Assembly (NCBI RefSeq): GCF_048403405.1
Contig: NZ_CP183129.1
Length of the DNA: 64,000 nt
DNA from: Escherichia coli
GTDB taxonomy: Bacteria; Pseudomonadota; Gammaproteobacteria; Enterobacterales; Enterobacteriaceae
Direction: 5' to 3' (one strand)
The position numbers were made by a program, and so were the translations under genes. The notes beneath the pieces are model-generated. The model saw nothing but the letters and a program-made list of their open reading frames with translations, was not told the origin of the DNA and ran no database searches. Shown here piece after piece: positions 28,679 to 31,656 of this stretch; position 1 is the first letter of the stretch, and each line of letters starts with the position of its first letter.

Positions 28679-29638
28679 GTGGCACAACGAGATTATGTAC
28701 GCCGCAGCCAACCGGCACCTTCGCGGCGAAAAAAGAGCACCTCACGGAAAAAGCAACGAAATCTGCCTGCGGTTTCTCCCGCTATGGTCGCTATTGCTGC
28801 CGCCGTTCTTGTGACCTTTATCGGTGGTCTGTACTTCATTACGCATCACAAGAAAGAAGAGTCCGAGACGCTGCAAAGCCAGAAAGTGACCGGAAACGGA
28901 CTACCACCAAAACCAGAAGAACGCTGGCGCTACATTAAAGAGCTGGAAAGTCGCCAGCCGGGTGTGCGTGCGCCAACAGAACCTTCTGCCGGTGGTGAAG
29001 TGAAAACGCCGGAGCAACTGACACCAGAACAACGCCAGCTTCTTGAACAAATGCAGGCTGATATGCGCCAGCAGCCAACGCAGCTGGTTGAAGTTCCGTG
29101 GAATGAGCAGACGCCGGAACAGCGTCAGCAAACGCTACAGCGCCAGCGTCAGGCGCAGCAATTAGCGGAGCAGCAACGCCTGGCTCAGCAGTCGCGTACG
29201 ACTGAACAAAGCTGGCAGCAGCAGACGCGTACGTCGCAAGCCGCACCGGTACAGGCGCAACCGCGCCAGTCTAAACCGGCGTCTTCTCAGCAGCCGTACC
29301 AGGATCTGCTGCAAACTCCTGCGCACACGACTGCGCAGTCGAAGCCGCAGCAAGCTGCGCCAGTTGTTCGTGCCGCTGACGCGCCAAAACCGACGGCGGA
29401 GAAAAAAGACGAACGCCGCTGGATGGTGCAGTGCGGTTCGTTCAGAGGCGCGGAACAGGCAGAGACGGTACGTGCTCAGCTGGCGTTCGAAGGCTTTGAC
29501 TCGAAAATCACCACCAACAATGGCTGGAATCGTGTGGTCATTGGCCCGGTGAAAGGCAAAGAGAACGCAGACAGCACCCTCAATCGGTTGAAGATGGCGG
29601 GTCATACAAACTGCATTCGGCTCGCCGCCGGGGGTTGA
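28679..29638 (+). CDS. ftsN: cell division protein FtsN (SPOR domain)
   Basis: 319 aa; GTG start; MAQRDYVRRSQPAPSRRKKS; Q/P-rich linker. Confidence 0.9.
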   Translation: MAQRDYVRRSQPAPSRRKKSTSRKKQRNLPAVSPAMVAIAAAVLVTFIGGLYFITHHKKEESETLQSQKVTGNGLPPKPEERWRYIKELESRQPGVRAPTEPSAGGEVKTPEQLTPEQRQLLEQMQADMRQQPTQLVEVPWNEQTPEQRQQTLQRQRQAQQLAEQQRLAQQSRTTEQSWQQQTRTSQAAPVQAQPRQSKPASSQQPYQDLLQTPAHTTAQSKPQQAAPVVRAADAPKPTAEKKDERRWMVQCGSFRGAEQAETVRAQLAFEGFDSKITTNNGWNRVVIGPVKGKENADSTLNRLKMAGHTNCIRLAAGG

Positions 29639-29662
29639 AACCCTCAAAATCCCCCCCATCTA
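29634..29662 (+). promoter_or_regulatory. sigma32 heat-shock promoter of hslVU (gTTGAAA-N13-CCCCATcTA)
   Basis: Match to sigma32 -35/-10 consensus about 70 bp upstream of hslV. Confidence 0.7.
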
Positions 29663-29730
29663 TAATTGCATTATGCCCCGTACTTTTGTACGGGGTTTGT
29701 ACTCTGTATTCGTAACCAAGGGGTCAGCTC

Positions 29731-30261
29731 GTGACAACTATAGTAAGCGTACGCCGTAACGGCCATGTGGTCATCGCTGGTGATGGTCAGGCCACGTTGG
29801 GCAATACCGTAATGAAAGGCAACGTGAAAAAGGTCCGCCGTCTGTACAACGACAAAGTCATCGCGGGCTTTGCGGGCGGTACTGCGGATGCTTTTACGCT
29901 GTTCGAACTGTTTGAACGTAAACTGGAAATGCATCAGGGCCATCTGGTCAAAGCTGCCGTTGAGCTGGCGAAAGACTGGCGTACCGATCGCATGCTGCGC
30001 AAACTTGAAGCACTGCTGGCAGTCGCGGATGAAACTGCATCGCTTATCATCACCGGTAACGGTGACGTGGTGCAGCCAGAAAACGATCTTATTGCTATCG
30101 GCTCCGGCGGCCCTTACGCCCAGGCTGCGGCGCGCGCGCTGTTAGAAAACACTGAACTTAGCGCCCGTGAAATTGCTGAAAAGGCGTTGGATATTGCAGG
30201 CGACATTTGCATCTATACCAACCATTTCCACACCATCGAAGAATTAAGCTACAAAGCGTAA
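29731..30261 (+). CDS. hslV: ATP-dependent protease subunit HslV
   Basis: 176 aa [30 protein letters not shown]. Confidence 0.95.
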
Positions 30262-30270
30262 GGATCTCCC

Positions 30271-31602
30271 ATGTCTGAAATGACCCCACGCGAAATCGTC
30301 AGCGAACTGGATAAGCACATCATCGGCCAGGACAACGCCAAGCGTTCTGTGGCGATTGCTCTGCGTAACCGCTGGCGTCGCATGCAGCTCAACGAAGAGC
30401 TGCGCCATGAAGTGACTCCGAAAAATATCCTGATGATCGGCCCGACCGGTGTCGGTAAAACTGAAATCGCCCGTCGTCTGGCTAAGCTGGCGAATGCGCC
30501 GTTCATCAAAGTTGAAGCGACCAAATTCACCGAAGTGGGCTATGTCGGTAAGGAAGTGGATTCTATTATTCGCGATCTGACCGATGCCGCCGTGAAAATG
30601 GTACGCGTCCAGGCTATCGAGAAAAACCGTTATCGCGCTGAAGAACTGGCAGAAGAACGTATTCTCGACGTGCTGATCCCACCTGCTAAAAACAACTGGG
30701 GACAGACCGAACAGCAGCAGGAACCGTCCGCTGCTCGTCAGGCATTCCGCAAGAAACTGCGTGAAGGCCAGCTTGATGACAAAGAAATCGAGATCGATCT
30801 TGCCGCAGCACCGATGGGCGTTGAAATTATGGCTCCTCCGGGAATGGAAGAGATGACCAGCCAGCTGCAGTCCATGTTCCAGAACCTGGGCGGCCAGAAG
30901 CAAAAAGCACGTAAGCTGAAAATCAAAGACGCCATGAAGCTGCTGATTGAAGAAGAAGCGGCGAAACTGGTGAATCCGGAAGAGCTGAAGCAAGACGCTA
31001 TCGACGCTGTTGAGCAGCACGGGATCGTGTTTATCGACGAAATCGACAAAATCTGTAAGCGCGGCGAGTCTTCCGGTCCGGATGTTTCTCGTGAAGGTGT
31101 TCAGCGTGACCTGCTGCCGCTGGTAGAAGGTTGCACCGTTTCCACCAAACACGGGATGGTCAAAACTGACCACATTCTGTTTATCGCTTCTGGCGCGTTC
31201 CAGATTGCGAAACCGTCTGACCTGATCCCGGAACTGCAAGGTCGTCTGCCAATCCGCGTTGAGCTGCAGGCACTGACCACCAGCGACTTCGAGCGTATTC
31301 TGACCGAGCCGAATGCCTCTATTACCGTGCAGTACAAAGCACTGATGGCGACTGAAGGCGTAAATATCGAGTTTACCGACTCCGGTATTAAGCGCATCGC
31401 GGAAGCGGCATGGCAGGTGAACGAATCTACCGAAAACATCGGTGCTCGTCGTTTACATACCGTTCTGGAGCGTTTAATGGAAGAGATTTCCTACGACGCC
31501 AGCGATTTAAGCGGTCAAACCATCACTATTGACGCAGATTATGTGAGCAAACATCTGGATGCGTTGGTGGCAGATGAAGATCTGAGCCGTTTTATCCTAT
31601 AA
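30271..31602 (+). CDS. hslU: ATP-dependent protease ATPase subunit HslU
   Basis: 443 aa; Walker A GPTGVGKT. Confidence 0.95.
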
Positions 31603-31633
31603 TCGCGTTCAATCATTTTCATCATTGTTTGAT

Positions 31634-31656
31634 GGGGCTGAAAGGCCCCATTTTTA
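31634..31656 (+). terminator. rho-independent terminator after hslU
   Basis: ggggc-tgaaa-gcccc + TTTTT. Confidence 0.75.

Follow-up and report, generated by a model that had tools for sequence, protein, structure and literature searches.

The window analyzed here, a 64,000-nucleotide (64-kb) stretch of Escherichia coli DNA, carries at its ftsN–hslV junction PhslV, the heat-shock promoter from which sigma32 (RpoH) directs the E. coli hslVU (clpQY) operon, followed by the leader of the mRNA that it drives. We put the probability of this identification at roughly 0.97. The element is already known: the literature describes the promoter and the sigma factor that it uses, where transcription starts, and the hairpin in the leader. 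The original description of the hslVU promoter is reportedly that of Chuang et al. 1993, and is said to have used primer extension. Because positions 29560–29760 of the window are base-for-base identical to K-12 MG1655, the published K-12 experiments apply directly to this DNA, and MG1655 coordinates (NC_000913.3) are obtained by subtracting the window coordinate from 4152018. The features referred to below, all on the plus strand of the window, are as follows.

29635–29640, plus strand: -35 hexamer TTGAAA of the sigma32 promoter PhslV, read directly and located at -35 to -30 from the mapped start
29641–29653, plus strand: 13-nt spacer ccctcaaaatccc, read directly
29654–29662, plus strand: -10 element of the sigma32 promoter, CCCCATcTA (CCCCATCTA), read directly
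29661–29666, plus strand: sigma70/sigmaS-type -10 hexamer TATAAT, read directly and overlapping the end of the sigma32 -10 element
29670, plus strand: transcription start A, from the capped 5' end at MG1655 4122348 (PMC6131387) after conversion of coordinates
29670–29730, plus strand: 61-nt 5' untranslated leader of the hslVU mRNA, from the capped 5' end and direct reading
29675–29696, plus strand: 5'-proximal stem-loop, GCCCCGTAC / TTTT / GTACGGGGT, from folding, covariation and published mutants
29718–29723, plus strand: Shine-Dalgarno sequence AAGGGG, 7 nt 5' of the GTG, read directly and inside the RF02401 match
29731–30261, plus strand: hslV (clpQ) coding sequence with a GTG start, from the ORF list, RefSeq and PDB chains that begin at Thr2
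30271–31602, plus strand: hslU (clpY) coding sequence, from the ORF list and RefSeq
31631–31656, plus strand: intrinsic terminator of the hslVU unit, a GGGGC-TGAAAG-GCCCC stem followed by ATTTTTA, with a mapped 3' end

Direct inspection returned, letter for letter, the motif that the earlier note had read (gTTGAAA at 29634–29640, N13 and CCCCATcTA at 29654–29662), an exact match to the sigma32 consensus. The pattern TTGAAA-N12-15-CCCCATNT occurs a single time in the 64-kb window, with both strands considered, and in none of 100 dinucleotide-preserving shuffles. When up to three mismatches were allowed at the fixed 13-nt spacing, all other matches (n = 13) carried three mismatches, against a chance expectation of 19.3. 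The spacing between TTGAAA and CCCCAT is the most common one according to a study that counts it as 14 (PMC10044804), and the consensus for the sigma32 -35 element is CTTGAA (PMC10216364). In PhslV a G takes the place of the consensus C before TTGAA, a consequence of the overlap between the hexamer and the FtsN codons GGT-TGA; the TGA that ends ftsN (29636–29638) lies within the -35 hexamer itself (...GGG GGT TGA AA). A long FtsN-like reading frame with a ...GG* end closes at the hexamer TGA in 67 of 80 related loci, and in Vibrionaceae, where CTTGAA is present, that TGA closes no long FtsN-like reading frame.

The surrounding genes agree with this assignment. Open reading frames in the window follow the order cytR, ftsN (ending at 29638), hslV, hslU and menA, with the same gene limits in the RefSeq annotation. 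Of 5426 complete E. coli genomes, 5425 contain a match to a 501-bp query, at a site annotated ftsN/hslV, and in 5270 the identity is at least 99%. The earlier note had taken the promoter as confirmation of both strand and start. The strand stands, as the mapped transcript shows, but a promoter cannot fix a start codon; the GTG at 29731 is fixed independently by the RefSeq annotation. PDB chains of HslV begin at residue 2, with Thr2 at the N terminus, which supports the same codon, and a GTG/ATG-ACx-ACx start (Met-Thr-Thr) is kept in 79 of the 80 loci. We take the N-terminal threonine of HslV to be the catalytic nucleophile, as in Ntn-hydrolase proteases. At the other end of the operon, the RefSeq start of menA (31669) lies only 13 nt 3' of the end of the hslVU terminator, which fits a reported hslV-hslU-menA-rraA read-through variant.

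The function of the promoter was established genetically by Lien et al. (PMC2681174), who combined lacZ fusions with northern blots in strains mutated in rpoH, in rpoS or in both. In lacZ fusions, a 141-bp fragment spanning 29628–29768 was as active as a 478-bp fragment; placed by its primers, the shorter fragment starts only 7 bp 5' of TTGAAA. Promoter activity and mRNA both rose at 42 °C, and expression and heat induction were lost in rpoH mutants and unaffected in rpoS mutants (PMC2681174). A single substitution, m1, which turns the third C of CCCCAT (C29656) into T, reduced expression 1.7-fold and left no heat induction (PMC2681174). A minor transcript and basal activity were left in rpoH mutants (PMC2681174), pointing to a low basal input from another sigma factor or from ftsN read-through.

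The start site comes from long-read sequencing of capped transcripts. SMRT-Cappable-seq reports, in two passages of its supplement (PMC6131387), a b3932|b3931 unit at NC_000913.3 4120362–4122348 on the reverse strand. Its 5' end converts to A29670, which follows the final T of CCCCATCT (29654–29661) by 9 nt, and its 3' end, MG1655 4120362, converts to 31656, the end of the T tract of the hslVU terminator; this coincidence with the terminator cross-validates the coordinate mapping. A start site mapped elsewhere was what the earlier note had named as contrary evidence, and the published 5' end instead falls 9 nt past the -10 element. Lien et al. 2009 (PMC2681174) give the leader as 71 nt, and their construct begins at 29660. 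A leader of that length would place the start at 29660, inside the -10 element, which conflicts with normal promoter geometry; the published figure is probably a counting discrepancy and 10 nt too long. The supplements consulted for Cappable-seq 2016, Conway 2014, Cho 2014 and Kim 2012 contained no matching start-site rows, and a full-text literature search with the promoter sequence returned Lien et al. as the sole match. On the opposite strand, Term-seq (Adams et al. 2021 supplement) lists a modest antisense 3' end at window 29671, minus strand (MG1655 4122347, +), which lies 4 nt past the palindromic hairpin and adjoins the sense-strand start site. It may have arisen by termination, by trimming as far as the hairpin, or by collision with polymerase bound at the promoter.

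The promoter motif is well conserved across relatives. Our comparative set was assembled by a scan for HslV with one genome per species and comprised 80 loci, mostly from Enterobacterales with a few from Vibrionaceae and Alteromonadales; the motif was scored over 13 specified positions within 260 nt 5' of hslV. It was complete (13/13) in 66 loci, at 12/13 in eleven and at 11/13 in two, and the hexamer TTGAAA was perfect in 77 of the 80. Spacer length was 13 or 14 nt in 79 of 80 loci, although the spacer sequence varies freely between genera. Across 47 distinct aligned leaders, invariance was confined to C1, C2, C3, A5 and T8 within the -10 element and to the A of alignment column 17 (A17), the mapped start site 29670. 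The one locus of the 80 without the sigma32 motif (best score 8/13), which is also the exception in spacer length, belongs to the endosymbiont Candidatus Gullanella endobia (L077). Its hslV starts with TTG, and together with the motif loss this is consistent with lost heat-shock promoter control in a reduced genome.

The leader adds a second layer to the element. A 5' UTR hairpin had been proposed in the earlier note at 29674–29700; folding and covariation uphold its existence and place its limits more narrowly, at 29675–29696. The stem comprises 9 bp, including an outer G-U pair, and closes a TTTT loop at 29684–29687, so that the structure occupies +6 to +27 of the transcript. The leader folds at -23.3 kcal/mol with z = -2.2 relative to shuffles, a z-score that alone is weak evidence, and it is the covariation, not the fold z-score, that makes the hairpin convincing. 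Across the aligned leaders, 94.1% of cells were paired, compared with 34–57% when the 3' partner was slid. All eight of the eight pairs showed double-sided changes, with 65 compensatory cells versus 15.8 expected, and the covariation score was reached by 0 of 500 shuffles. RNAalifold, run on the leader alignment, independently predicted the same 8 pairs. In 39 of 47 leaders the stem core begins 14 nt past the -10 element, a distance that corresponds to transcript position +6/+7.

That the structure matters to the mRNA is known from published mutants (PMC2681174). Deleting the inverted repeat (delta-IR) or changing one of its arms to T (S-IR) left much lower mRNA and lower protein, whereas a stem swap with another sequence and the same structure (R-IR) restored wild-type mRNA levels. 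Decay after rifampicin was measured for delta-IR only and was faster than in the wild type. Lien et al. (PMC2681174) also describe the leader as having no RNase E or RNase III recognition sequences, and mention, from their own unpublished data, no effect of Hfq.

Rfam already models this leader. Family RF02401 (ClpQY_promoter) matches 29676–29733 with 63.6 bits against a gathering score of 42 (E = 4e-13); the match is full length (model positions 1–57) and covers the stem-loop, the Shine-Dalgarno sequence and the start codon. Despite its name, the family models the RNA leader, not the DNA promoter elements at 29635–29662. Among 20 loci scanned, it was also found in Enterobacter, Erwinia, Pantoea, Hafnia, Serratia and Yersinia. 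Two other RNA-level roles were considered and rejected. We found no match to a thermometer family of Rfam in the leader, where the Shine-Dalgarno sequence is weakly paired in the fold, and Lien et al. (PMC2681174) report no thermosensitive segment there. The only other Rfam match, to the small RNA anti-hemB, scored 15.5 bits (E = 0.39), below its gathering score of 49.5, and was taken as chance.

The motif, the dependence on rpoH, the effect of a -10 mutation, the 5' end and the requirement for hairpin structure have each been established from the sequence or by published experiment, and the course of events is as follows. RNA polymerase carrying sigma32 recognizes TTGAAA (29635–29640) and CCCCATCT (29654–29661), 13 bp apart, and initiates at A29670. 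Upon a temperature upshift, a rise in sigma32 yields more of a 1987-nt hslV-hslU transcript (29670–31656). The leader of this transcript presents 5 unpaired nucleotides and then a GC-rich stem-loop of 9 bp at +6 to +27, which prolongs the half-life of the mRNA, and translation begins at the GTG at 29731 behind the Shine-Dalgarno sequence AAGGGG. By analogy with the ompA and papA leaders, the hairpin may act by hindering 5'-end-dependent RNase attack. Those leaders likewise carry GC-rich hairpins near the 5' end, in which structure, not sequence, prolongs mRNA life, although the hslVU leader differs from them in placing 5 unpaired nucleotides before its stem. The same comparison is drawn by Lien et al. 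(PMC2681174).

Comparison with other known systems leads to the same identification. The hslVU/clpQY promoter of E. coli K-12 (PMC2681174) is the same object, with an identical -35 hexamer, -10 element, leader and GTG start; K-12 hslVp shows no biological difference, and only the stated leader length differs between sources (71 nt in Lien et al. versus 61 nt from long reads). The dnaK P1 promoter shares TTGAA(A/G), the 13-bp spacing, CCCCATxT and a start 8–9 nt past the -10 element. In the work on the sigma32 open-complex structure, the dnaKp1 scaffold reads CTTGAAG-N13-CCCCATTT with the start 8 nt later (PMC10216364), so that PhslV starts 1 nt further from its -10 element than dnaKp1 does.

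The alternative that survives best concerns the hairpin: the stem-loop could be, mainly or additionally, the intrinsic terminator of cytR-ftsN, with hslVU stabilization a second use of the structure and the sigma32 promoter enclosed by the stop codon of ftsN on one side and its terminator on the other. We consider this a possibility, though on balance a doubtful one. The position is suggestive: ftsN stops within the -35 hexamer, and this is the sole hairpin in the 92 nt that separate ftsN from hslV. SMRT-Cappable-seq (PMC6131387) describes a cytR-ftsN unit that ends after ftsN, besides ftsN-hslV-hslU read-through, whereas the Term-seq tables examined contain no sense-strand 3' end at the hairpin. 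What they do contain is the antisense 3' end 4 nt past the stem, and the stem is a near-perfect palindrome. The tail differs between lineages: 7–8 T occur in the 9 nt after the stem, the canonical form of a terminator, in Tatumella, Rosenbergiella, some Pantoea, Pectobacterium and Hafnia, but the E. coli tail TTTGTACTC fails a terminator scan. A strong terminator at +27 to +35 would stop hslVU transcripts too, and the fixed 14-nt gap to the -10 element (39 of 47 leaders) fits a role linked to the 5' end at which sigma32 transcripts begin. The stabilizing role, moreover, was demonstrated directly by experiment (PMC2681174). Stabilization of the hslVU mRNA is the role that we prefer for the hairpin, with weak termination of ftsN transcripts as a possible secondary one.

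An extension of this idea, which we hold to be more speculative still, is that one palindromic hairpin serves three roles, stabilizing the hslVU 5' end, acting as a leaky cytR-ftsN terminator and setting the 3' boundary of an antisense RNA. If this were true, sigma32 polymerases in the T7 lineages (Tatumella, Rosenbergiella and some Pantoea) would have to pass a canonical terminator about 30 nt into the transcript, implying either promoter-proximal escape from termination or an unrecognized attenuation step in heat-shock protease expression. The T-tailed leaders are those of loci L041 (1432–1489), L062 (1430–1487), L057 and L058 (1429–1486), L074 (1426–1483), L071 (1427–1484) and L044 (1434–1491), and in Tatumella, Rosenbergiella, some Pantoea and Pectobacterium the T-tailed hairpins lie approximately 30 nt past the predicted sigma32 start.

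Far less probable is a reading in which a sigma70 or sigmaS promoter operates through TATAAT at 29661–29666 and the sigma32-like motif is incidental. The hexamer is perfect and is preceded by a C (CTATAAT), and the basal activity and minor transcript in rpoH mutants (PMC2681174) would suit such a promoter. It lies 20 bp from TTGAAA, however, so that in the wild type TATAAT has no functional partner, and a scan for sigma70-type promoters found none at the locus. The mapped start at 29670 is only 4 nt past TATAAT, which is too close, and neither an rpoS mutation nor mutation of the putative RpoS -10 element had an effect (PMC2681174). TATAAT is also not kept in Erwiniaceae, where the sigma32 motif is kept, and is in this sense only a lineage-specific hexamer. 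A deletion of 2 bp from the C run would leave 18 bp between TTGAAA and TATAAT, and the authors of PMC10044804 predict a shift toward sigma70 from exactly such a deletion. We regard this reading of the wild-type promoter as very unlikely and retain sigma32 as the factor that drives PhslV. That the motif matches the consensus by chance and does nothing, a reading whose sole support is the general recurrence of short motifs, has a negligible probability given the absence of the motif from all 100 shuffles, its perfect retention in 66 of 80 genomes while the spacer diverges, and the mutational and genetic evidence for function.

The C run itself (29651–29657) comprises seven residues, beginning in the 3' part of the spacer and continuing into the -10 element. 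It has been a recurrent target across two independent heat-evolution studies, in both of which deletions became fixed. One found a 1-bp deletion at -74/+19 (window 29657) in two populations (PMC7750951), and the other found a 2-bp deletion in the run (PMC10044804). The run may be a slippage-prone tuning site, and TATAAT may explain the selection of deletions within it, which move the hexamer toward a workable sigma70 spacing.

As a discovery, the element is of small significance, given that its leader is already a curated Rfam family. Its value is that of a positive control, in which a validated regulatory element was recognized from sequence alone with its coordinates, strand and target operon correct. 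The comparative analysis adds refinements to this picture: the start-site A is invariant, the distance from the hairpin to the -10 element is fixed across Enterobacterales, and the FtsN stop and the -35 hexamer are locked together. A minor observation concerns a record titled E. coli SCPM-O-B-8794 (L003, 753–829), whose HslV is 99% identical and whose leader is divergent. Its spacer ends in atatc rather than atccc, and compensatory changes are present in its hairpin (GCCCCGCAC...GTGCGGGGC); the record probably comes from a divergent lineage of Escherichia.
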